The notes beneath the pieces are model-generated. The model saw only the letters and a program-made list of their open reading frames with translations. It had not been told where the DNA came from and made no database searches. A program made the translations under genes and the position numbers. A stretch of DNA of 64,000 nucleotides from contig CBDAOY010000007.1 of assembly GCA_965198225.1 (NCBI GenBank), positions 1,013,545-1,077,544 on the forward strand. Direction: 5' to 3'. Source of the stretch: Terriglobia bacterium. GTDB taxonomy: Bacteria; Acidobacteriota; Terriglobia; 20CM-2-55-15. Within the stretch, counting starts at the first letter, position 1; the number at the start of each line of letters is the position of its first letter. This document shows positions 15,680 to 26,292 of this stretch, in pieces.

Positions 15680-16245
15680 GACTTTTTCTCACCTGCAATC
15701 CTGAAATAGACCTTCCTCAGTTCCTGCGTTGCCCGGAAGACTCGAACCTTGACGGTTCCGGTGTCGCAGCCCATGACCTCGCCGATCTGATCGTATTTCA
15801 TGTTCTGAAACCGGCTCAGAATCAACACCTCGCGCTTCTCGTCGGGAAGATCCGCCAGAGCCCGTCGCAACAGCGCGGCCTCCTGCTTTTTCCCAAGGTC
15901 CTCGGGCGCGACCGACGGGCTCATCACCTCCAGCAGCGTGTCTTCGAAGTAGTACTCCCGCTTGTGCTTGTTGAGGTGGTCGATCCGGGCGTTCCGCGCG
16001 ATGTGGTACATCCACGTCGTGAACCGGCTGCTGGCTCGAAACGTAGCACGGTACTTCAGAATCCGGAAGAAGACGTCTTGAACGAGATCCTCGCTCACTT
16101 CGCGGCTGCCGGTCATCCGGATGAAGAAGTCGAACAGCTTCCTGTGATTCCGGTCAAACAGCACCCCCAGCTTGGCCACCTGCCCCTTGCTCACGTCGAG
16201 CATCAGGGCATCATCGCTGACGGAACTGACTTCCTGCGCCTTCAT
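15661..16245 (-). CDS. ECF RNA polymerase sigma factor
   Basis: EDLVQDVF, FTTWMYHIARN, LPDEKREVLIL, GTVKVRVFRA. Confidence 0.95.
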   Translation of the reverse strand: MKAQEVSSVSDDALMLDVSKGQVAKLGVLFDRNHRKLFDFFIRMTGSREVSEDLVQDVFFRILKYRATFRASSRFTTWMYHIARNARIDHLNKHKREYYFEDTLLEVMSPSVAPEDLGKKQEAALLRRALADLPDEKREVLILSRFQNMKYDQIGEVMGCDTGTVKVRVFRATQELRKVYFRIAGEKKSWNAQK

Positions 16246-16459
16246 TCTTCCGATTCCAATCCTGAAAACCGATCGATTGTCAAAAGGTTACAGAAAACCG
16301 CAACCAAAAGGGGCGATGATTTCAGAGTCGGTTTCAGAAGTTGGAGACCAGGGCTTAAAGGATTGATCACAAGCGTCTTATCGCCTGCCGACAGGCAAGA
16401 TTGCGACGACGTGGACGATGTGCCGAATGGAAAGGGACTTCGCAGTTGTGCAGGGAACG

Positions 16460-16740
16460 GCTCCAGGCCATAACCGACTTCGATCCAGATCCGGCGTTCC
16501 TCGATCGACGTCAGTATCAGGACACCGTTGTCTTCACCCCGCTGCCCGATGCCCCAGCGTTCGAAAAGACGGTTGGCGAAGTCCGCAATCTCCCCGCCCT
16601 GGAGCGACGGCAGCGTGACGACGGCCACCTGCGGACCGGTCTTCTGCTCGAGCTACGCCAGAAACGGTTCCACCTGACCCCGCTCGGCACTCATCACATT
16701 CGCGAAGTCATTGACGTATCCGCCGGGCTCCAGCTGATTG
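16460..16740 (-). pseudogene. TPM-domain (YgcG-like) gene remnant
   Basis: GYVNDFANVM...FLA*LEQKTGPQVAVVT...WGIG...DNGVL...EVGYGLE; in-frame TAG at 16653-16655; similarity ends after GYGLEP. Confidence 0.8.
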
Positions 16741-16888
16741 TGGAGCGCATCGCCCGTCTTGGGCCGAGAGCGGGGTCTGGCCGACGCAGACGGTCAGTGA
16801 CAGGAGCAGGGGCAGGAACAGCTTTGTCGTCGGGCGAAGCATCGCTCTTCCTATTGTATGCGACAGGGGAGGATGTTGTGATTTCTGG

Positions 16889-16924
16889 ATAAAATAGGGA
16901 CAGACTCCTGTGTCCCTATTTTAT
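16889..16924. repeat. Perfect 14-bp-stem hairpin (REP-like or terminator)
   Basis: ATAAAATAGGGACA-GACTCCTG-TGTCCCTATTTTAT. Confidence 0.65.
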
Positions 16925-16957
16925 CGGCAACATTTTGAACCACTTAAAATGCCGGCT

Positions 16958-17650
16958 ATGAAGATCTCTGTCATCATCCCAGCCTACAACGAAGCGGACC
17001 AGATCGGGCTGACACTGGACGCCGTCCACGCCGCAGGCCTTGATGACGTTCTGGTGGTCGACGGCGGCAGTGCCGACGAAACGGTTCTGCACGCACAGGC
17101 CGCCCGGGTGACGACGATGGAGGGTCCCCGGGGAAGGGCGAGCCAGATGAACGCCGGCGCGCGAGTCAGCAGCGGGGAGGTCCTGCTGTTTCTCCACGCC
17201 GACACGCGCCTGCCGCCGGACGCGGGCCGGCTTGTCGAGAACGCCCTCGCGGACGATCGCGTCCTCGGTGGTGCCTTCCACCTGCGATTCGACTCCGGCG
17301 GCTGGCTCATGCGTCTGGTGAGCTTCCAGACCAACGTGCGTTCCTACATTCTCGCCCCCTGGGGGGATCAAGCTCTTTTCGTCCGCCGCACCTTCTTCCT
17401 CGAAACCGAAGGCTACCGGCAATGGCGCTTGATGGAGGACGTCGAAATGGCTCATCGCATCAAGAAGAACGGACGATTCACAATGATCCGGACCCCGGTG
17501 GTGACTTCCGGTCGACGATTTCGCGAGCAAGGCTTCATCCGAAACGGAGTCCGCAACCAGATGCTGATGGCGGCATACTATGCAGGCATTGCGCCGGACC
17601 GCCTGGCTCGATTCTATTCCTATGACCGGCGAACAAGAGAGGAACGCTGA
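16958..17650 (+). CDS. GT2 glycosyltransferase, TIGR04283-type (arsenosugar/rSAM-selenodomain-associated)
   Basis: ISVIIPAYNE, VDGGSAD, GRASQMNAGA, LFLHADT, GDQALF, LMEDVE, TSGRRF. Confidence 0.9.
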   Translation: MKISVIIPAYNEADQIGLTLDAVHAAGLDDVLVVDGGSADETVLHAQAARVTTMEGPRGRASQMNAGARVSSGEVLLFLHADTRLPPDAGRLVENALADDRVLGGAFHLRFDSGGWLMRLVSFQTNVRSYILAPWGDQALFVRRTFFLETEGYRQWRLMEDVEMAHRIKKNGRFTMIRTPVVTSGRRFREQGFIRNGVRNQMLMAAYYAGIAPDRLARFYSYDRRTREER

Positions 17651-18330
17651 TGAAGGCGCCGCTGGCGACCTCGCTTGTCATCATGGCCAAGGCGCCACGT
17701 GCCGGCCGCACGAAAACGCGCCTGTTTCCCGCTTTGACCCCTGATGAAGCCGCCGGTTTGTATCGGTCGATGTTGCTGGACACGATCGAGCGGCTCCGTT
17801 CGCTGTCCGGGTTCGAGCTCTGGCTGGCATTCACGCCGGAGGACGAACGGGCCTGGTTCGAGACGAACATCGATCCGCCGATCCCGTTGATGCCTCAGCG
17901 GGGCGACGATCTGGGCCAGCGTATGCACCACATCGTCGAAGACAGGTGCTCCGATGGAGCTGAAGCTGTGCTGCTCGTCGGAACCGACCTGCCCACGCTT
18001 CCCGCCGACTATGTGCGTCAGGCGGCGGATTTACTGCACGAGGACGACAGGGTCGTCCTCGGCCCGACCGAAGACGGGGGCTACTACCTGATCGGATTGT
18101 GCGAGCCGGACATCCGTCTGTTCGAACGAATCGAATGGAGCACGGATTCGGTCTTCCAGCAGACCGTCTGTCAGGCCGAGGCGGCAGGAAAGTCCGTCTC
18201 GACGGTTCCGTCCTGGTTCGACATCGACGAGCCTGCCGACCTCGAACGTCTCCGGAGCGCGCTCGAACACAGCGACGAGCAAACCCATCCCCCGCACACC
18301 GCGAACTTTCTGGCGTGTCTCGGAGGCTAG
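17650..18330 (+). CDS. CofC-like transferase, TIGR04282/DUF2064-type
   Basis: IMAKAPRAGRTKTRL, QRGDDLGQRM, GTDLP, VLGPTEDGGYYLIG, IEWST, DIDEPADL; translationally coupled to the GT2 gene. Confidence 0.9.
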   Translation: MKAPLATSLVIMAKAPRAGRTKTRLFPALTPDEAAGLYRSMLLDTIERLRSLSGFELWLAFTPEDERAWFETNIDPPIPLMPQRGDDLGQRMHHIVEDRCSDGAEAVLLVGTDLPTLPADYVRQAADLLHEDDRVVLGPTEDGGYYLIGLCEPDIRLFERIEWSTDSVFQQTVCQAEAAGKSVSTVPSWFDIDEPADLERLRSALEHSDEQTHPPHTANFLACLGG

Positions 18331-18369
18331 ACCATTTCGGGCCGTTCGATCGCGCCATAGCTGGCTCGA

Positions 18370-19014
18370 TCACTCCTCCGCTCCCGAATCTCCTTCAGTT
18401 GCGTCCTCCGTGAACTCCGCCAGCGAACGTCGCGCCATCTGTGTCAGCAGCACGGCGACGATCACGGTAGCACCGAGCCCGAACCAATAGAGGACGGTTT
18501 CTCCGGTCGTGGCCTCGCGTTGACCCGACAACATTTCCGCAATGTTGAAAGCGACGGACCCGATGTAGACGTACATCGCGGTGGCAGGGAACATTCCCAG
18601 AAAAGACGCCAATACATAGTCACGCAGGCGGACCCGCGTCAGGCCCAGCGAATAGTTCAGGAAGACGAAAGGAAAGACGGGCGACAGGCGGAGGAGTGTG
18701 ATCAGCTTGAATCCCGATTCTTCCGCGGCCTGGTTCAGCCGGTCGAGGAACGGCTGATTGCGGATCCGCCGCTCTATCCGGTGGCGGAACGCGGTACGAA
18801 CGAGTAGAAACGCGATCGTCGCGGCCAGGACGCTCACGGGAGAAACCAGAGCCGTTCCGAGAATCGGCCCGTATATGAATCCGGCGATCAGCGTCATCGC
18901 AGAGCCTGGAATCAGGGCGATGGTTGCAACTACGTATATAAGTGCGAAAGCGAGGGGACCGATCCAGCCCAGACCCCGGATCGTTTCGACAGCGATTATG
19001 ATCCAGTCGTCCAT
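18370..19014 (-). CDS. TVP38/TMEM64 (VTT/DedA) membrane protein
   Basis: IPGSAMTLIAGFIYG, LLRLSPVFPF, LNYSLGLT, GMFPAT; ATG at 19014. Confidence 0.9.
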   Translation of the reverse strand: MDDWIIIAVETIRGLGWIGPLAFALIYVVATIALIPGSAMTLIAGFIYGPILGTALVSPVSVLAATIAFLLVRTAFRHRIERRIRNQPFLDRLNQAAEESGFKLITLLRLSPVFPFVFLNYSLGLTRVRLRDYVLASFLGMFPATAMYVYIGSVAFNIAEMLSGQREATTGETVLYWFGLGATVIVAVLLTQMARRSLAEFTEDATEGDSGAEE

Positions 19015-19123
19015 GAGTAAGTGGCCACCAGGCCATATCGCGCATGGCTTGCGCACGAACTCGACGTGGGCCATCGGCGTGAAGAAAGCGCCCGGCTCCA
19101 CAAATGTCGCCGGGTGCGGCCTA

Positions 19124-21577
19124 TCAGCAGCACTCGCCGGGTTCGCAACACTCAACGCTGGACAGCGCCGCGTCAGCATCCTTGGCCATCACCAGGAAAG
19201 ATCCCGCGTAAGGCTCTCGCGACAGTTTCGCAGCGGTATCGGTGCACACCTGGACGGGTTCGTTTCGGGGAAAGAGGTGGCCTTCCTCGTCGACGACCGC
19301 CTTCAGCGGGCCCAGATAGACGGCGCGCTGGCCTTCGAAGTTGCACACTCCGTTCTTCCCGAACTTGAAGCCCTGGATGATCAGCGAGTAGAAACGGTAG
19401 CCTTCGATCTCTTTCCAGAAGGTTTTCTCGACGAGCGACAGGCCGTAGAAACCCACCTGCTCGAGCATGGCGAAGTATTCATCTTCGGTCAGTGCTCCCG
19501 AGACGCACTCTCCCCACAGCCGGGGGTTGGCTTTCATGTGGTGGGGAATCTTCGATTCGGACACCGTGTCGGAGATGATCGCGCGGCCGTGATTCTTCAG
19601 AACCCGCCACATCTGCGAAAGTACGCGGCGTTTATCGGGCGAAAGGTTGATCACGCAGTTGGACGTCACGATATCGGCCTTCTGATCCTCCAGCGGAAGC
19701 TGTTCGAGGTATCCGCGCCGGAATTCGACGACGTCGTACCCGAGGGATTCGGCGACGATGCCCCGATTCCGTTCGGCCCGCTCGATCATTTCCGTCGTCA
19801 TGTCGATGCCGATCACACGACCGCTGGACCCGACGCGCTGTGCCGCGATAAAGCAGTCGATACCGCCTCCCGAACCGAGATCGACGTATGTTTCGCCCGG
19901 CTTGATGTCGGCGAACCGAATCGGGCTGCCGCAGCCGTAGGACACCTCGACGACTTCCTTCGGCAGTGCCCGAAGCTCGGCGGGGTCGTAGGCGGTCGGA
20001 CAGCACAGCGCTTCCTGAGGCTCGACGGCCGCCTGGGCGTAGAACTGGCGGACTTTCTCACGCGATCGTTCCAAGTCGACGGAGAGGACGCACGTGGAAC
20101 GGGATGTGGCGATCTCGAACCCCTCCGCTTCAATGGTTTCCATCTCAGAAAGCGATTCACCCATCGCGGCCACGACGGTCGGGGAATCGTATCCGGATGG
20201 GCCCTCATGGCTCTTGTTCTCAGAGGCGATCTGCTCGATCGCTCGGAGCAGCAGCCATTCGTGAACCTTCGAAAACGGGTCTTTTCCAAGGACGGTGCCG
20301 GAGTAGAAGAATGAATGTTCGACGTCACCGCCGCCGCACACGTAGCGCAGGTAGCATTCCTGACAGTCTTCTTTCGCGATGACGCTGGCTCGGCGCAGCG
20401 CGCGCGCGCGCGCGGATGTTTTCCAGATTTCCGCCAGCGGCTGTTCCTCGACGTTGCCCATAAGCAGTTCGGGGACACCGGCCAGCGCCGCGGAAGGATA
20501 GACGGTGCCGTCCGCGTAGACGCAGCAGCTGCTCGTGGCCGCGACCGACAGGTCCATCTTGACCCCGCGTCGGCCCTGAGCCCTTTCCCGGGCGACCTCG
20601 TAGTTGTCGAGCTCGATTCCCTTCGAAGATGCGTTTTCCAGGTATCGTTCCAGCATCTCGATGATGTCGGCGGTGAACGGACTCTGCATCTGGTCGTCTT
20701 CCAGAGCCCTGCCCTGTTTGTGGTCCCACAGCAGGTGATGACGCCGGACGCCGAGTTTGTCCAGGAACTCCGGGAATCGAGGAAGCGTGTCGAGGTTCGA
20801 GCGAGTCACGACAGTGGACACGGTCGGTTCAAACGCGGCGTCCAGCAGGGCGCCGATGCCTTCGACGGTTCGCTCGAACCCGGATCCGCGGATCGCGTGG
20901 TGGGTCTCGCGGTCGGGTCCGTCGATGCTGACCTGTAGGGCCACGTTGCCGTTCGCGGCGGCTTTGAGATTGGCCAGGGTATCGCCCCGGAAGAACATGG
21001 CGTTGGTCAGGATGACGAGTTCGCTGTCGGTGCAGATGGCCCGAACGATGTCGATCAGGTCGCGCCGTAAGAACGGCTCTCCACCGGTGATGTAAAATTG
21101 CCGAACACCCATCTGTTTCGCGTCGTCGACGATCTTCAGCCATCGATCAGTTGGAAGTCCCTCGATCCCTTTCGGGGAAGAATCCACGAGGCAGTGGGCG
21201 CAAGTCAGGTTGCAGCGGTTCGTCAGGTGCAGCCACATCTCTTGCGGCTCGTGGCGCTCGATCAACGCCCCGCGACCCGGATAGGTCGGGTGCTGGAACG
21301 GCTCGCTTCTCAGGAAGTCGGTCCGCAGTGCATGGTTGAGCAGCGTGCTGACGTCGAGCCAGGCTTCGGCCCAGTCCTTGCCCGCGTGGGACCGGTAGCG
21401 GCCCACAAGGTCCGAGACCCTCCGCTGTCCGTCGATCCAGCCGAGTATTTCGACGCCCGCTCGGTTCGTCACGATCCAGTTTGGCGCCTCGGGGTCGAAC
21501 ATCAGTCCGAATTCTCCGATCAGCCGCTCTTCGTAACGTGGGGGCGCGTGAAGTACCTGTTCAGGCAAGATAGTCAT
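19124..21577 (-). CDS. Fusion of PqqD-like domain, radical SAM, degenerate SPASM and ArsM-type SAM methyltransferase
   Basis: CNLTCAHC, TGGEPFL, SIDG; CQECYLRYVCGGGD; LCCP, SYGCGSP, DLGSGGG, GIDMT, SNCVINL, WGECVSGA; C-terminal CCEPGECC. Confidence 0.9.
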   Translation of the reverse strand: MTILPEQVLHAPPRYEERLIGEFGLMFDPEAPNWIVTNRAGVEILGWIDGQRRVSDLVGRYRSHAGKDWAEAWLDVSTLLNHALRTDFLRSEPFQHPTYPGRGALIERHEPQEMWLHLTNRCNLTCAHCLVDSSPKGIEGLPTDRWLKIVDDAKQMGVRQFYITGGEPFLRRDLIDIVRAICTDSELVILTNAMFFRGDTLANLKAAANGNVALQVSIDGPDRETHHAIRGSGFERTVEGIGALLDAAFEPTVSTVVTRSNLDTLPRFPEFLDKLGVRRHHLLWDHKQGRALEDDQMQSPFTADIIEMLERYLENASSKGIELDNYEVARERAQGRRGVKMDLSVAATSSCCVYADGTVYPSAALAGVPELLMGNVEEQPLAEIWKTSARARALRRASVIAKEDCQECYLRYVCGGGDVEHSFFYSGTVLGKDPFSKVHEWLLLRAIEQIASENKSHEGPSGYDSPTVVAAMGESLSEMETIEAEGFEIATSRSTCVLSVDLERSREKVRQFYAQAAVEPQEALCCPTAYDPAELRALPKEVVEVSYGCGSPIRFADIKPGETYVDLGSGGGIDCFIAAQRVGSSGRVIGIDMTTEMIERAERNRGIVAESLGYDVVEFRRGYLEQLPLEDQKADIVTSNCVINLSPDKRRVLSQMWRVLKNHGRAIISDTVSESKIPHHMKANPRLWGECVSGALTEDEYFAMLEQVGFYGLSLVEKTFWKEIEGYRFYSLIIQGFKFGKNGVCNFEGQRAVYLGPLKAVVDEEGHLFPRNEPVQVCTDTAAKLSREPYAGSFLVMAKDADAALSSVECCEPGECC

Positions 21578-21756
21578 GGGGTGTCTCCTGATTCAATGCG
21601 AAGGGCAAGTTCTCCGAACGAATCATTTGATCGACTTTTCTTCAGCCGATATTGTAAGCGAAGTCACCGAGATGGGAAGGGTAGCGTGGATGTCAAAGAC
21701 GAGAGAGGTGAGGGGCGCCGGCAGACGATGACGCGACCTGCCGGCGTCTGCGCCTT

Positions 21757-22415
21757 ATCCCGGGCGTCGACGCATCTCTTCCCGGGTGATGAATCCATCA
21801 TCGTCCGCGTCGAGGCGGTCGAAGGCCTCAGTCGGTCGGGTCCACTCGTCACGAGAAACCTTGCCGTCGCCGTCTTCATCCATCTGGAGCATCGCGGCTC
21901 CCCGGCCACGTCCGCCTCTGCCCGGGCGGGAGTTCTGCATCTCTTCGAGAGTGATGAAGCCGTCGCCATCGGCGTCCATGGTCTCGAACATCTGCGCGGG
22001 ACCCGGAAACTCCTGCTGCGACACGCGTCCATCGCCATCGCTGTCGAGCCCCTGGAAACGGGCTTGAGGGTCTGCGCCTCTTCCGCCTCTATCCCGGGCG
22101 TCGCCATCTCTTCCCGAATCCATCATCGTCCGCGTCGAGGCGGTCGAAGGCCTCAGTCGGTCGGGTCCACTCGTCACGAGAAACCTTGCCGTCGCCGTCT
22201 TCATCCATCTGGAGCATCGCGGCTCCCCGGCCACGTCCGCCTCTGCCCGGGCGGGAGTTCTGCATCTCTTCGAGAGTGATGAAGCCGTCGCCATCGGCGT
22301 CCATGGTCTCGAACATCTGCGCGGGACCCGGAAACTCCTGCTGCGACACGCGTCCATCGCCATCGCTGTCGAGCCCCTGGAAACGGGCTTGAGGGTCTGC
22401 GCCTCTTCCGCCTCT
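21757..22415. repeat. Tandem duplication of the EF-hand-coding 3' end of the selenoprotein gene
   Basis: 21757-22090 (334 bp, intact) and 22091-22415 (325 bp, with 7-nt and 2-nt deletions). Confidence 0.9.
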
Positions 22416-23246
22416 GCCGCGGCCGCCCCCGAATTGCCGCTGGATTTCGTCACGAGCGAGGAGACCATCATCGTTTCGATCGAGCCGGTCGAACGTCTCG
22501 CCGTCGCCCGTCCACTCTTCCCGTGAGATTGTACCGTCCTCGTTCGTGTCCATGACGCCCATACCGCCCGCAGTCCCGGGCCTCTGCCCCGGCCGAGGGC
22601 GCATACCACGCATGCCGCGGCCGCGACGCTGTCCCTGTTCCTGTCCGTAGGCGGTGATCTCCCCTCTGAGAGCGACCTCGAGCGCTGCCCTGGCTTCGGG
22701 GACATCGAACCCGGCCGGCCCGGGGCGTCCCTTGAAGGCGATGGTGCCGTCGGAGCCCACGACATAGATCCGGTCGGGAAACGCGGCGTACGCATTCGCC
22801 GTCCGGTCGTCGATCTTGTCCAGAATGGTCGGCATCGAGATGTCCAAGGCGGTCGTACAGATGTTGGCTGCTTCCTGGCGCTGCTCGTCGGTTTTGGCTT
22901 GTTCGATCAGGATGCCGTCGATAACATTCGCCGCTCCGAGGTTGCCGTCGGTGGGATGCGCTTCTCGAATGTAGACGAAGAAGAAATTGGCGCGGTCCTT
23001 GTAAGCCTGGTACCAGTTTTCGATGTCCACGACATCGCGGCGGAACGGGCCTCAGGTATAGCTGGCGAAGATCAGCGCGGTCGGTCTGCCCGTCATCTCA
23101 GAAAGCGTAATCTTTTGCTTTCCGTCTTTTGTACTGAGCGTGAAATCAGGCGCCGTATCTCCAGGCGTGGGGCCGCCGCCTCGCCGCTGGGCCGTGGCAG
23201 GGCTCACCAGGACGAGGACCAATAACGCAGACGCGAATGTTCTCAT
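22089..23246 (-). CDS. Iodothyronine deiodinase-like selenoprotein with signal peptide and EF-hand tail (Sec at codon 65)
   Basis: RBS GGAGGAG and ATG at 23246; ORFs 23052-23288 and 22089-23030 are in one frame joined by TGA, giving FASYT-U-GPF; then YIREAHPTDG, YAAFPDRIYV, KGRPGP; DxDxDG EF-hands. Confidence 0.88.
23021..23037 (-). promoter_or_regulatory. Candidate bacterial SECIS element
   Basis: CGAUGUC-GUG-GACAUCG hairpin; apical loop starts with GU, 21 nt downstream of the UGA at 23052-23054. Confidence 0.75.
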
Positions 23247-23345
23247 GGGTTTACTCCTCCGTCGACTATAGACAGGGCGGAGCGGCACGGGTTTAAGAGC
23301 GTTTTCAAATCGAATGAGGACCGCGTCCAGCGGTACGAGCTAGCT

Positions 23346-23516
23346 TCAGCCCCCTCCGCCAAGGAGGAAGCCTCCTGCGGCGCCGCGCGCTGTTCCCGAC
23401 GCCAGGTCTCCCAGGAGCAGACCGCCTATTGCGCCGACAACGGCAAACACCGCGATCGTGCCCATCTTGGCTGCTGCGGACTTCTTAGCGCAGCTTTGTT
23501 CTTCGTTCTCTGTCAC
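23346..23516 (-). CDS. Small (56 aa) Gly-rich membrane peptide
   Basis: GTG start with GAGG upstream; MTENEEQSCAKKSAAAKMGTIAVFAVVGAIGGLLLGDLASGTARGAAGGFLLGGGG; below the ORF-track cut-off. Confidence 0.45.
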   Translation of the reverse strand: MTENEEQSCAKKSAAAKMGTIAVFAVVGAIGGLLLGDLASGTARGAAGGFLLGGGG

Positions 23517-23652
23517 GAAAGAGCCTCAGTTTCCCCGTTCAGTCGATGATACCGGTGTTGTAACGGGATTTCTTCAAAAAAGCCGGGGTCTGCCGGGGCG
23601 TCGCCCGGATGCGGTAACATTAGGCTGACTTGAGTGTGATGGAGGCAGGTTC

Positions 23653-23931
23653 ATGAAAGCAATATGGCAGGGCGCGGTCTTGGCCGAAAGCGAAGATACC
23701 ATCGTCGTGGAAGGGAACCACTACTTCCCACCGGAGTCGACCGACACCTCCCACTTTCGGCAGAGCCGGACCCACACGGTCTGCCCGTGGAAAGGACAGG
23801 CCAGCTACTACGACATCGTCGTCGACGGCGACACCAATAAGGACGCCGCCTGGTTCTACCCCGAGACGAAGGAAGCCGCCGACCAGATTCGCGGTTATGT
23901 CGCGTTCTGGCACGGAGTCGAAATCACCTAA
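23653..23931 (+). CDS. DUF427 (NTP_transf_9) protein
   Basis: VEGNHYFPP, TVCPWKGQASYY, AAWFYP, GYVAFW; RBS GGAGG. Confidence 0.92.
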   Translation: MKAIWQGAVLAESEDTIVVEGNHYFPPESTDTSHFRQSRTHTVCPWKGQASYYDIVVDGDTNKDAAWFYPETKEAADQIRGYVAFWHGVEIT

Positions 23932-24021
23932 AACGGGGGCAGAGCCCCCATTTCCCTCTTTCGTTCTCAACTTATTTCTGTTTTGGGCAGCGTCCGACGA
24001 CGCTTCAAAACGATCTTGAGC

Positions 24022-24055
24022 TTGACAGAAAGCCACCCTATGTAGAAATCTACAT
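24022..24055 (+). promoter_or_regulatory. TTGACA box and palindromic PadR-type operator
   Basis: TTGACA at 24022; ATGTAGA-AA-TCTACAT at 24040-24055, 3 nt before the padR-family ATG. Confidence 0.65.
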
Positions 24056-24058
24056 TCG

Positions 24059-24364
24059 ATGCCTCGAAACTACATGACATATCCGTCCGGTCTGGTCCTG
24101 CAGGCAATCGCTTCGGGGCATCGGTATGGTTTCGATGTGATGGATGTGACGGGATTGCCGAGTGGTACGGTTTACCCGGCACTTCGGAAGCTGGAACGAG
24201 AGGGCTATGTCCGTTCCAGGTGGGAAGGCGAAGATGTGGCCCGCCAGGCAGGGCGTCCACCGCGGCGTTACTACGAGGTTAGCGGCCCTGGCTCGGCGGC
24301 CTTGACCCAGCTGCTGAAACGGTTTCCAGGACTGGCCCGGGCCCTTGCCGCGGAGGTCTTGTGA
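24059..24364 (+). CDS. PadR-family transcriptional regulator
   Basis: YGFDV, GTVYPALRKLE, GRPPRRYYEV. Confidence 0.92.
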   Translation: MPRNYMTYPSGLVLQAIASGHRYGFDVMDVTGLPSGTVYPALRKLEREGYVRSRWEGEDVARQAGRPPRRYYEVSGPGSAALTQLLKRFPGLARALAAEVL

Positions 24365-24975
24365 GGTGGGCAGGCGGCGAGCGGTCTCTCCGCGTCTGCC
24401 TGTTGTGGATTCGCGCTCTGTCGTTCCTCGTCCCGCCCCCGGGCCGGGACGAATGGATGCGGGAGTGGCGTGGCGAGCTTCTGCATCACTGGAGTGAGTT
24501 CGAGACAGGAGTTCAAAAGTCCCGTGCTGCAAGATTCGATTTGTTCCTACATTCGATGGGCGCCTTGCCTGATGCACTGTGTCTGCTGCGTCAGGAGTGG
24601 AGACTGGACATGCTGATGCAGGATCTGACCTATGCGGTACGGACGCTCGGCGCTCGACCGGGCTTCACCTTCGTAGTGATTTTCATTCTGGCGCTGGGTA
24701 TCGGGGCCAACACCGTCGTGTTCAGCGTCGTCGATGCCGTCCTGTTTCGACCCCTACCGTTTCCCGAGCCGGAGAGGCTGGTTGCGATCTGGGACGAAAA
24801 CACCCAAAAGTCGATGCTTCGTCAGGGTCCGGCGCCCGGCAATCTGCTGGACTGGCGTGACCAGTCACGGGTGTTCGATGGTATCGGAGCCTGGTACGCG
24901 GGCGAGCCCAGGACTGTGCGCGACGAGTCCAGTGCGGAGAAAGTGTCCGCCACTATAGGATTTTATTATGTCTAA
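24361..24975 (+). pseudogene. ADOP/MacB-like ABC permease truncated by element insertion
   Basis: QDLTYAVRTL..RPGFT, LALGIGANTVVFSVVDAVLFRPLPFPEPERLV; ends after about 200 aa at an abrupt switch to AT-rich sequence near 24952. Confidence 0.85.
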
Positions 24976-25073
24976 TAATATCCATAAGTCTTATTTATAT
25001 CAACAGTATATCGTCCTAGACAATCCAGCGCCGTCTGGTATAATCCAAGCCTGTTGGGGGATATATTGGGGGA
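24946..25073. other. Putative attL of the integrative element
   Basis: TCCGCCA (like a tRNA 3' end) at the junction, an AT-rich tract, and TTGGGGGA direct repeats at 25054 and 25066 upstream of the integrase. Confidence 0.55.
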
Positions 25074-25113
25074 GTGCTGGAGTGCCTCTGCCCCATCGGT
25101 CGAGGGCTCTGCA

Positions 25114-26292
25114 ATGGCCATTCACAAACTCTCCCAACGCAAGGTAGACACCGCCGGTCCCGGCAAATACGAAGACGGCGGCGGGCTCCGCTTGGTGGTG
25201 TCCAATTCAGGCGCCAGGAGATGGGTCCTGCGTTACACCGTCCACGGCAAACGCCGGGAAATGGGTCTGGGCCGTTATCCCGATGTCGGGTTGGCCGATG
25301 CCCGCACGCAAGCGCTACGGCACCGGAGGCAGTTGGCGACGGGCGTAGATCCCATCGCAGCCCGCCGGGCGGCCCCGGAGACGCTACCCACCTTCACCAT
25401 CTGCGCCGCCCGGTATATCCGGGCCCATCGACGGAGTTGGCACAATGCCAAGCACGCGCGGCAATGGGTCCGGAGCCTGAAGACCTATGCCCGGCCCGTC
25501 ATCGGGGCCAAACGGGTCGACGCCATTGAGACTGAAGACATTGTAAAGATACTCTCTTCGATCTGGAACACCAAGACCGAAACGGCCAAGCGCGTGCAGG
25601 GGCGCATCGAAAATGTCCTGGACTTCGCCGCCGCGCACCAATACTGCGGTCCCCTGAACCCGGCCCGCTGGCGGGGCCATCTGGACAAGTTGCTCCCGAA
25701 GCCCTCCCGGGTGAAGCAAGTCACCCACCACCCGGCCATGCCGTATCCCGAGGTGGCGGACTTCCTGCAGGAGCTGTCCGGACACCGGAGTGTATCGGCG
25801 CAGGCGCTGCGGTTTTTGATCCTGACCGCCACGCGCACCAGTGAAGTCTTAGAGGCGCAGTGGCCGGAAATCGATCGGACCGCCGGTATATGGATCCTTC
25901 CCGCCTCCCGGATGAAAGCCCGACGGGAACATCGAGTTCCCTTATCGGATGCGACCCTGGCGGTTCTGGAAGACCTACCCCGCATGGCAGGCCACCCGTA
26001 TGTCTTCGCCGGATCTCGCCACGGACGCCCTCTGTCGAACATGGCCCTACTGAAATTGATGCGAGACATGGGATATTGCGTTGAGGGTTCCCGGGCTCAC
26101 TACGTGCCGCATGGATTTCGCTCCAGTTTTCGGGATTGGTCCGGCGAGGTGTCGAGCTTCCCGCGAGAAGTTGCGGAAATGGCCTTGGCCCACGTGGTGG
26201 AGAACAAGGTGGAAGCGGCCTACCGGCGGGGGGATCTGTTCGCCAAACGGCGCAGCATGATGCAGGCCTGGGCCGACTACCTCAAGAAGTAG
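25114..26292 (+). CDS. P4-type tyrosine integrase with arm-binding domain
   Basis: DGGGLRL, MGLGRYP; catalytic R (TATRTSE), K (MKA), HGFR, LAH, AAYRRGD. Confidence 0.95.
   Translation: MAIHKLSQRKVDTAGPGKYEDGGGLRLVVSNSGARRWVLRYTVHGKRREMGLGRYPDVGLADARTQALRHRRQLATGVDPIAARRAAPETLPTFTICAARYIRAHRRSWHNAKHARQWVRSLKTYARPVIGAKRVDAIETEDIVKILSSIWNTKTETAKRVQGRIENVLDFAAAHQYCGPLNPARWRGHLDKLLPKPSRVKQVTHHPAMPYPEVADFLQELSGHRSVSAQALRFLILTATRTSEVLEAQWPEIDRTAGIWILPASRMKARREHRVPLSDATLAVLEDLPRMAGHPYVFAGSRHGRPLSNMALLKLMRDMGYCVEGSRAHYVPHGFRSSFRDWSGEVSSFPREVAEMALAHVVENKVEAAYRRGDLFAKRRSMMQAWADYLKK

Follow-up and report, generated by a model that had tools for sequence, protein, structure and literature searches.

Arsenosugars and arsenolipids are major natural arsenic species, and the known start of their biosynthesis, consisting of the methyltransferase ArsM and the radical S-adenosylmethionine (SAM) enzyme ArsS, has been studied mainly in cyanobacteria. 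A review describes ArsS as adenosylating DMAs(III) to 5'-deoxy-5'-dimethylarsinoyl-adenosine (DDMAA) [PMC13598754]. A comparable pairing of ArsM with a radical SAM enzyme that forms a carbon-arsenic (C-As) bond is found in the arsinothricin pathway, in which ArsL is a non-canonical radical SAM (rSAM) enzyme transferring a 3-amino-3-carboxypropyl group [10.1101/2024.02.01.577332]. The rSAM/SPASM peptide maturases with an RRE domain (CteB, SuiB, SkfB and PqqE) offer a third comparison and combine the RRE, an rSAM barrel and a C-terminal iron-sulfur (Fe-S) domain. The locus described here lies in a stretch of 64,000 nucleotides (the window) from contig CBDAOY010000007.1 of a soil-type Terriglobia bacterium, and its central gene encodes a protein of 817 amino acids (aa) in which an rSAM module is fused to an ArsM-type methyltransferase. 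This rSAM/SPASM-ArsM fusion would be a variant on the known ArsM plus ArsS scheme, with an rSAM component of a different kind from the known ArsS. On balance, the locus probably encodes a variant of an arsenosugar-type organoarsenical pathway, in which ArsS would be replaced by an unrelated RRE-rSAM-SPASM module fused N-terminally to the ArsM-type methyltransferase.

As the original prediction had stated, the region of 16.9-23.5 kb consists of six genes, whose coordinates and layout were confirmed by profile matches at the positions given. Two plus-strand transferase genes converge on four co-oriented minus-strand genes, which in order of transcription encode a 56-aa peptide, a selenoprotein, the fusion and a VTT-domain membrane protein. 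The fusion gene (19124..21577, minus strand) encodes an RRE(PqqD)-like domain, a radical SAM core, a reduced SPASM domain and an ArsM-type methyltransferase, in that order; the predicted rSAM-ArsM fusion is present, but its description as a plain rSAM protein did not hold, since the N-terminal RRE/PqqD-like domain and the reduced SPASM domain are there as well. The RRE/PqqD-like domain (residues 1-95; 21293..21577, minus strand) is modelled as three strands (16-20, 23-28 and 33-37) followed by three helices (39-46, 54-65 and 69-85) by AlphaFold2, and it matches PF05402 at residues 26-86 with 17.3 bits, below the cut-off of 23.4; the same family is precomputed for 19 of the 120 listed fusion homologues. 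The radical SAM core with the reduced SPASM/twitch region (residues ~96-460; 20198..21292, minus strand) matches PF04055 (79.5 bits) and PF13186 (32.5 bits vs 21.5). The cysteines of the radical SAM motif C122-x3-C126-x2-C129 were invariant in alignments of 24 and 94 family members, and only C352, C405, C408 and C414 of the seven-Cys SPASM motif were retained, with an invariant Ser362 in place of the second Cys.

The remaining part of the protein (residues ~461-817; 19124..20197, minus strand) was assigned by its motifs, Foldseek and an HMMER alignment to a linker, bearing the invariant C496, and a full ArsM-type As(III) SAM methyltransferase, with a Pfam match to Methyltransf_31 at 118 bits. 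The C525-C526 pair, YGC549GSP, the SAM motif DLGSGGG, SNC641VINLSPDK and WGEC691 were observed in this half, and the ArsM motifs are in register with those of CrArsM and human AS3MT; the cysteines of the YGCG, SNC and WGEC motifs and of the CC pair are presumably the arsenic ligands. In the AlphaFold2 model, which was built from 94 sequences (pLDDT 89.5, pTM 0.89), the nearest structures to the C-terminal half were those of ArsM/AS3MT (4fr0, 6cx6, 5evj and 8xt7; Foldseek E ~1e-21 over ~300 columns). The ArsM assignment of the original prediction is upheld by these data, the arsenic-binding cysteines and the fold both being kept. Also present in this half are a long C-terminal domain, which contains C745 and C778, and CCxPGxCC at the very end. 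The listed fusion genes that are complete nearly all encode ...CC immediately before the stop codon, and the Cys-rich C-terminus, which is nearly universal in the family, is probably flexible, given its low confidence in the model. No selenocysteine (Sec) or read-through at the tail was found among the listed fusion genes.

By the curated cut-offs, the fusion belongs to no named NCBIfam family. The best rSAM match was the sactipeptide maturase StsB (139 bits, cut-off 625). The general ArsM model NF008823 gave 241.8 bits for the whole fusion and 245 bits for its C-terminal half (cut-off 263), the arsenosugar-type ArsM model NF038099 gave 171-175 bits (cut-off 400), and NF040538 gave 211-216 bits for the C-terminal part (cut-off 500). 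The fusion shares with the ArsL plus ArsM pathway the pairing of ArsM with a radical SAM enzyme, which in the fusion would likewise form a C-As bond, and this NF040538 match, but the score lies far under the cut-off and the accessory genes of the fusion are those of ArsS clusters.

A protein search returned 2330 matches, of which the best 120 were 748-877 aa long, with 43-92% identity and 91-100% coverage, and carried only generic names ('methyltransferase domain-containing protein', 'radical SAM protein with 4Fe4S-binding SPASM domain' and 'PqqD family peptide modification chaperone'). Among species-representative genomes (one per species), at least 563 stretches encode a relative of the fusion. 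The neighbourhood sample comprised the best 80 of these at least 563 loci, with 10 kb on either side of the fusion, many of them clipped by contig ends. According to record titles, the 80 loci come from Terriglobia/Acidobacteriota, Nitrospirota, Scalindua and other Planctomycetota, Thermodesulfobacteriota, Gemmatimonadota, Omnitrophota, Zixibacteria, Latescibacterota, Elusimicrobia, Dadabacteria and Spirochaetia, and from Hydrothermarchaeota and other archaea. The fusion is rare and patchy in Acidobacteriota (3 of 251 sampled genomes) and was found in eight of 40 relatives, across three genera. No description of an rSAM/SPASM-ArsM fusion was found in the searchable literature, which covers few subscription journals.

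Around the fusion, genes are typically on the same strand, tightly packed and often overlapping, in many phyla. Open reading frames (ORFs) of the TIGR04282 type occurred within 10 kb in 22 of the 80 loci, under many phylum labels, which argues for an association of the fusion with the transferases beyond chance; TIGR04283-type ORFs occurred within the same distance in 15 loci. Both were confirmed with NCBIfam at E <= 1e-10 (35 ORFs scanned), and the other neighbours were counted by ORF clustering, with representatives checked against Pfam. In this way, the PiT phosphate transporter was observed within 5 kb in 20/80 loci, VTT and Redoxin in 17/80 each, the pyridine-nucleotide disulfide oxidoreductase (PyrRedox) in 16/80, a 505-aa GT2 glycosyltransferase in 13/80, DUF547 in 12/80 and DUF3179 in 10/80. 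An ArsR-family regulator stands directly upstream in 3/80 loci, and a PstS-type binding-protein gene with transporter neighbours stands downstream in 3/80, only the PstS-like representative having been scanned. The regulators near the fusion depend on the lineage (ArsR, Crp or PadR). With FUS for the fusion, GT for the TIGR04283 gene and NT for the TIGR04282 gene, characteristic orders were PiT-FUS-x-GT-NT-DUF3047-VTT-PyrRedox (L076), GT, VTT-PyrRedox-FUS-NT (L033/L037) and DUF3179-NT-FUS-GT-DUF547-PyrRedox (L101). The VTT/DedA protein had been proposed as a partner in the cluster, and its recurrence agrees with that proposal.

Single ORFs joining a GT2 domain (TIGR04283 in L077) to a DUF2064/TIGR04282 domain were also observed (L077:5147-6493 and L073:8560-9945), and on this basis the two transferases can be argued to act together. 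The gene directly upstream of the fusion in Scalindua and in some other loci (L041:8551-9999, with homologues in L040, L045, L047, L050, L051, L056, L063, L073 and L079) encodes a polytopic membrane protein of 430-500 aa (~470). It has no Pfam match, apart from a weak GT87 match in L057 only, and it may be a GT-C-like partner.

To compare the fusion with ArsS at the genome level, 50 fusion-bearing genomes were searched, corresponding to 50 of the 80 loci, one per genome and mostly with longer loci; the resulting counts ignore kinship, and related genomes are not independent. ArsS exceeded its cut-off in only three of the 50 genomes, leaving 47 without it, and TIGR04282 exceeded its cut-off in 42 and TIGR04283 in 38, so that the predicted co-occurrence of the fusion with the transferases was recovered. 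In the window genome, the best match to the ArsS model TIGR04167 was the fusion itself (50.8 bits, cut-off 300). The proposed lack of a stand-alone ArsS is therefore valid genome-wide, but that of a stand-alone ArsM is not, as a canonical ArsM of 273 aa is encoded on another contig (NF008823 334 bits, cut-off 263). Among 251 Acidobacteriota genomes, a tally that includes three flagged as unpublished (G054, G157 and G029), ArsS was over the cut-off in 52 and the fusion was present in three; TIGR04282 was carried by 50 of the 52 ArsS-bearing genomes and by all three fusion genomes, none of which carries ArsS.

For the comparison of gene neighbourhoods, eight ArsS loci were picked for close ArsS and TIGR04282 on one contig, and four further ones were taken from finished or near-finished assemblies. 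All eight picked loci bear the same accessory genes as the fusion loci, as in L099 (NT, ArsM-ArsS-PiT-VTT-PyrRedox-GT .. DUF3179), L100 (GT-PyrRedox-VTT-ArsS-ArsM, NT), L094 (GT-PyrRedox-VTT-ArsS-NT) and L093 (GT2(505)-DUF547 .. NT-ArsS). Since the gene set around the fusion and around ArsS is otherwise common, the fusion appears to occupy the place of ArsM plus ArsS. The similarity extends to the ArsM proteins, as the ArsS-adjacent ArsMs of L099, L096 and L103 have the long C-terminal domain, the two extra Cys and the terminal CC of the fusion (...ECCEPGTDCC in L096 vs ...ECCEPGECC in the window), and the canonical 273-aa ArsM of the window genome is without the long C-terminal domain. With NF038099, the L103 ArsM scored 539.8 bits and those of L099 and L096 ~130 bits (cut-off 400); because the latter two fail this model, the ArsS-partnered ArsMs must be of at least two types. 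These two ArsMs (L099:9288-10436 and L096:9222-10385) scored best on the arsinothricin ArsM model, below its cut-off, and have an insertion of ~45 aa.

The fusion system thus resembles the ArsM plus ArsS arsenosugar pathway in having an ArsM-type enzyme with the same cysteines, long C-terminal domain and CC tail, a radical SAM partner, the accessory genes TIGR04282, TIGR04283, VTT, PyrRedox, PiT, DUF547 and DUF3179, and a similar genome-level tie to TIGR04282. It differs in that its rSAM part is homologous to ArsS in the core only, that it has an RRE-like domain and a reduced SPASM instead of the Cys-rich C-terminal domain of ArsS, and that the rSAM part is covalently joined to an ArsM half that stays under the NF038099 cut-off. 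As ArsS-cluster genes flank the fusion and most fusion genomes are without ArsS, the fusion is read as a non-orthologous ArsS replacement joined to ArsM. The variant pathway of the original prediction stands in this respect, with the fusion as the counterpart of ArsM plus ArsS (same accessory genes, ArsS lacking in 47 of the 50 genomes), and the chemistry it proposed keeps its conditional form.

According to this reading, As(III) would be held by the cysteines of the ArsM half and methylated with SAM, as the conserved motifs and the fold suggest, and the rSAM half would cleave a second SAM reductively to form a C-As bond. Because the fusion takes the ArsM plus ArsS position in otherwise equivalent clusters, we infer an ArsS-like adenosylation, and most parsimoniously a 5'-deoxyadenosyl radical would add to the methylated arsenic and yield a 5'-deoxy-5'-dimethylarsinoyl-adenosine-like compound. 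More speculatively, the Cys-rich C-terminal domain and the CC tail, common to the ArsS-partnered ArsMs, could pass the arsenical between the active sites. The conserved neighbourhood suggests that the TIGR04283 GT2 and the TIGR04282 nucleotidyltransferase-like protein may elaborate the arsenoribose, and that the VTT membrane protein may act on a membrane-bound or lipid-linked product.

Several observations weigh against this assignment, beginning with the fusion itself, for which all chemistry is drawn by analogy with ArsS. The rSAM half is no relative of ArsS as a whole, its TIGR04167 match of 50.8 bits covering profile positions 2-144 only; its nearest solved folds are RRE-bearing peptide maturases (SkfB, SuiB and CteB); and the ArsM half is under every NCBIfam cut-off. 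The CxxCx5C cysteines of the SPASM region are missing in three family members, and from this, the few SPASM cysteines kept and Ser362, at most one auxiliary cluster is expected. Other observations concern the gene neighbourhood. Most Nitrospirota loci have no accessory gene within 10 kb, and the window genome gave no match to PiT, DUF547 or the 505-aa GT2 at E 1e-10. Among the five complete fusion-bearing chromosomes searched, G001, with an 80% identical fusion, is without TIGR04282 and has a TIGR04283-like gene of only 125 bits; in G003 and G004, TIGR04282 lies megabases from the fusion and TIGR04283 is absent; and G005, searched for TIGR04283 and ArsS only, has neither. The coupling of the fusion to the transferases is therefore not obligatory. 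The accessory set shared with ArsS was seen in eight loci selected for closeness of ArsS and TIGR04282, and, of the four further ArsS loci, a single one (with ArsM and DUF3179) contained any of the set, the other three containing nothing of it, so that the clustering of ArsS is as variable as that of the fusion. Finally, TIGR04282 is common in Acidobacteriota, over the cut-off in 95 of the 251 genomes (100 at E <= 1e-25); it was present without the accessory set in 10 fetched genomes having neither ArsS nor the fusion, and 47 of the 100 carriers have neither ArsS nor the fusion. This rules out the idea that every TIGR04282 carrier has one or the other, and it makes the TIGR04282 name alone weak evidence for arsenic, the label 'arsenosugar' being an over-reach.

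An RRE domain normally binds a peptide, and the N-terminal half could accordingly be a peptide or protein maturase, with the RRE binding a Cys-rich peptide that is either a separate precursor or the protein's own CC tail. Acting jointly, the N-terminal and ArsM-like halves would then produce thioether or other cross-links plus methylation, or an arsenic-bearing modification, and no free arsenosugar precursor. The resemblance to the maturases of peptides that are made on the ribosome and altered after translation (RiPPs) is considerable, since Foldseek with the N-terminal half returned SkfB (6efn), SuiB (5v1s) and CteB (5wgg/5why), followed by PqqE and anSME, with E values of 1e-14 to 1e-17 for the RRE-bearing maturases and a TM-score on target of 0.69-0.71 for CteB (~475 columns). 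The architecture including the N-terminal RRE, the match to StsB, the invariant Cys496 in the linker and the nearly universal Cys-rich tail also favour a maturase. However, sequence identity to these maturases is 14-22%, the fusion has at most one set of auxiliary-cluster Cys, missing in some members, and it is joined to an arsenic methyltransferase in which the full arsenic site is kept. In addition, the clustering of small ORFs within 1.5 kb of the fusion across the family yielded neither a precursor peptide gene nor any other conserved one (those recurring were shadows of neighbouring genes), and the small peptide of the window is present in 3/80 loci only. Nearby genes encode transferases, transporters and membrane proteins, as is typical in ArsS clusters, and not RiPP proteases or exporters, and a maturase is considered unlikely. 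Because one would not expect a small-molecule arsenic enzyme to be built on an RRE/SPASM scaffold, a peptide- or carrier-arm-directed reaction is nevertheless kept in view, in which the RRE-rSAM-SPASM half would be no stand-in for ArsS and would act on arsenic held on a Cys-rich arm (its own CC...CC tail or a partner), making a new type of C-As bond, for example to a lipid or peptide carbon; this proposal also seems doubtful.

The fusion might also be an arsenic-detoxifying methyltransferase, with an rSAM half serving activation, repair or regulation and with transferases lying close by because of a shared stress or phosphate-starvation regulon. Such a role would suit the many fusion loci without transferases nearby, the four complete genomes without TIGR04283 (G001, G003, G004 and G005), the lineage-dependent regulators and the frequency of TIGR04282 without any arsenic enzyme. 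It is rather improbable, as the genes are arranged in operon-like, same-strand and often overlapping fashion in many phyla, GT2+DUF2064 fusions exist in L077 and L073, ArsS and the fusion exclude each other almost completely, it is specifically the ArsS-partnered ArsMs that have the C-terminal domain and CC tail in common with the fusion, and the window genome already has a canonical ArsM. A substrate other than arsenic, namely Sb, Se or Te, methylated by the ArsM-like half and alkylated by the rSAM half, was considered as well. Sb(III) is a substrate of ArsM enzymes, tellurite is imported by PiT carriers, ArsS was first modelled under the name 'rSAM_SeCys', the NCBIfam ArsM-like selenoprotein models NF041537, NF041536 and NF047649 match at 146-168 bits, and a selenoprotein gene adjoins the fusion. 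Set against this are the lack of Sec or tail read-through among the listed fusion genes, the link of the selenoprotein by position only, the closest solved relatives, which are arsenic enzymes with As(III) bound, and the PiT, Pst and ArsR neighbours, which fit the entry of arsenate as a phosphate analogue. Such a substrate is very unlikely, and the selenium alternative of the original prediction is not supported, since the fusion family has no Sec and these neighbours indicate arsenate and phosphate.

The two transferases and the VTT protein of the window belong to the recurring accessory set. The GT2 glycosyltransferase gene (16910..17650, plus strand) spans the entire TIGR04283 profile (positions 1-221 of 221; 238.9 bits, cut-off 182) and matches PF00535 at 66.8 bits; its ORF opens at a GTG at 16910, and the start is probably the ATG at 16949 or 16958. 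The TIGR04282/DUF2064 transferase gene (17650..18330, plus strand; TIGR04282 195.6 bits, cut-off 134; PF09837 117.3 bits), whose start overlaps the stop codon of the GT2 gene, encodes a CofC/MobA-like nucleotidyltransferase fold with weak matches to PF01983 and PF12804. The VTT-domain (TVP38/TMEM64, DedA-superfamily) membrane protein gene (18370..19179, minus strand; PF09335 97.7 bits vs a gathering score of 33.9) lies directly downstream of the fusion gene, and its true start is probably the ATG at 19074. Run X7 of another study yielded a contig in which 10 bases are absent at 19100, in the interval from the fusion stop to this probable start; this suggests that the longer ORF start at 19179 is unused and that the stretch is probably non-coding. 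A second VTT gene was observed immediately 5' of a pyridine-nucleotide disulfide oxidoreductase gene (G000 C6:145348-147474), the oxidoreductase having 63% identity to the cluster-associated type; in other genomes such a pair flanks the fusion or ArsS, and a near-identical oxidoreductase match is also present on G000 C1:12347-13852.

The gene upstream of the fusion (21755..23288, minus strand) encodes a secreted deiodinase-like thioredoxin-fold selenoprotein with C-terminal EF-hands, matching PF00837 (64.6 bits) and EF-hand families when translated with TGA as U, and NF038285 with 176.8 bits, below the cut-off of 250. The ORF runs from 23288, the start is probably the ATG at 23246, and a signal peptide is present. 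The in-frame TGA (23054-23052), in a T-U-G-P-F context, is followed by a 7-bp hairpin (23037-23021), together forming an element like a selenocysteine insertion sequence (23021..23054, minus strand). In all four loci compared (the window and L013-L015), the TGA and the hairpin stem were invariant and the loop was variable, and the third positions of the codons upstream of the TGA are free to vary. The hairpin is part of the minimum free energy structure, but the fold overall is no more stable than shuffles (z 0.42), so that the case for the hairpin is based on conservation. At least one in-frame TGA was present in 17 of 17 matches at the selenoprotein gene itself, and selA (537.5 bits) and a tRNA-Sec were found in the window genome. 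With its conserved UGA, selA and tRNA-Sec, the selenoprotein is real. Deiodinase-like proteins are listed among predicted prokaryotic selenoproteins in a table of PMC9312934, and the protein resembles them in its thioredoxin fold, the T-U-x-P-F context of Sec and the PF00837 match, but differs in its signal peptide and in its EF-hands, which are C-terminal and in the NF038285 profile N-terminal.

A near-full-length selenoprotein gene was found in 8 of the 40 relatives' genomes (coverage >=85%, 63-67% identity, always with TGA). It stands beside the fusion in four of the eight, all from the window's genus and including the window's own genome; it is on a different contig from the fusion in G314 and G322, and is present with no fusion found in G307 and G317. 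In L016, whose fusion shows 71% identity, the fusion is directly adjoined by the DUF427 and PadR genes, making the peptide-selenoprotein pair look like an insertion. The small peptide (23346..23516, minus strand; 56 aa, Gly-rich) has an acidic N-terminus, contains one transmembrane helix bearing a glycine zipper and ends in GGGG. It has no family match above any cut-off in NCBIfam or Pfam, its homologues are in L013-L015 only, and it is conserved only alongside the selenoprotein. Peptide and selenoprotein look like a pair apart from the arsenic genes, secreted or in the membrane, which was inserted next to the cluster in a single genus. Since the selenoprotein is beside the fusion in one genus only and is elsewhere unlinked or without the fusion, its link to the arsenic genes is positional only, a possibility already raised by the original prediction; the reducing power suggested there as its role is not supported for this secreted protein, and neither is the membership of the small peptide in the cluster, as it accompanies the selenoprotein and not the fusion.

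The 3' part of the selenoprotein gene contains a perfect tandem duplication (21791..22415; unit 325 bp, 1.9 copies, 100% matches). As 325 is no multiple of 3, the frame is shifted in the last EF-hand, and the protein as assembled ends in ...DADDDGFGKRWRRPG at 22089 owing to the duplication, with the second copy encoding the ending of the relatives (...GFITREEMRRRPG at 21755; ...GFVTQEEMRRG... in relatives). In contigs of runs X1, X3 and X6, from three studies, position 21790 is followed immediately by 22116, so that 325 bases are absent and a single copy is left; these are k-mer contigs, in which repeats can be collapsed. This leaves two origins for the duplication, an assembly artefact or a variant in the source population.

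Divergent from the peptide gene, a 92-aa ORF (23653-23931, plus strand) without an NCBIfam match, which we take to be DUF427-like, and a PadR-type regulator gene (24059-24364, plus strand; 36 bits, below the cut-off) were observed. They are followed by an ORF that resembles an N-terminal FtsX/MacB-type permease and terminates early (24361-24975, plus strand), directly before a 412-aa ORF that by eye is tyrosine-recombinase-like, of the phage integrase type (25054-26292, plus strand). An inserted element may have its border in the region of the recombinase-like ORF, at a distance of 1.5 kb from the cluster. No tRNA gene was found within the whole window, and Rfam gave no match at the gathering threshold for 16000-25500. 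Promoter-like sites (2 vs 1.5 expected) and terminator-like sites (10 vs 5.9 +/- 2.5 expected) were at chance level.

If arsenic were instead handled on a carrier arm, organoarsenic chemistry guided by a peptide or a carrier arm would be seen here for the first time, with a new class of arsenic natural products in Nitrospirota, anammox bacteria, Acidobacteriota and some archaea. Through the fusion, a so far unrecognised route to arsenic-containing sugars or lipids is probably open to many bacteria and some archaea. If it does the work of ArsM plus ArsS, radical SAM enzymology would have a second, independent solution to the C-As bond, on a peptide-maturase scaffold, and with both arsenic steps in one polypeptide the pathway would be easy to test heterologously. 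The repeated pairing with PiT/Pst makes a link of the compounds to phosphate scarcity testable. Hundreds of non-phototrophic lineages, including nitrite oxidisers, anammox bacteria, soil Acidobacteriota, Planctomycetota and Hydrothermarchaeota, would be candidate producers if the fusion stands in for ArsM plus ArsS.

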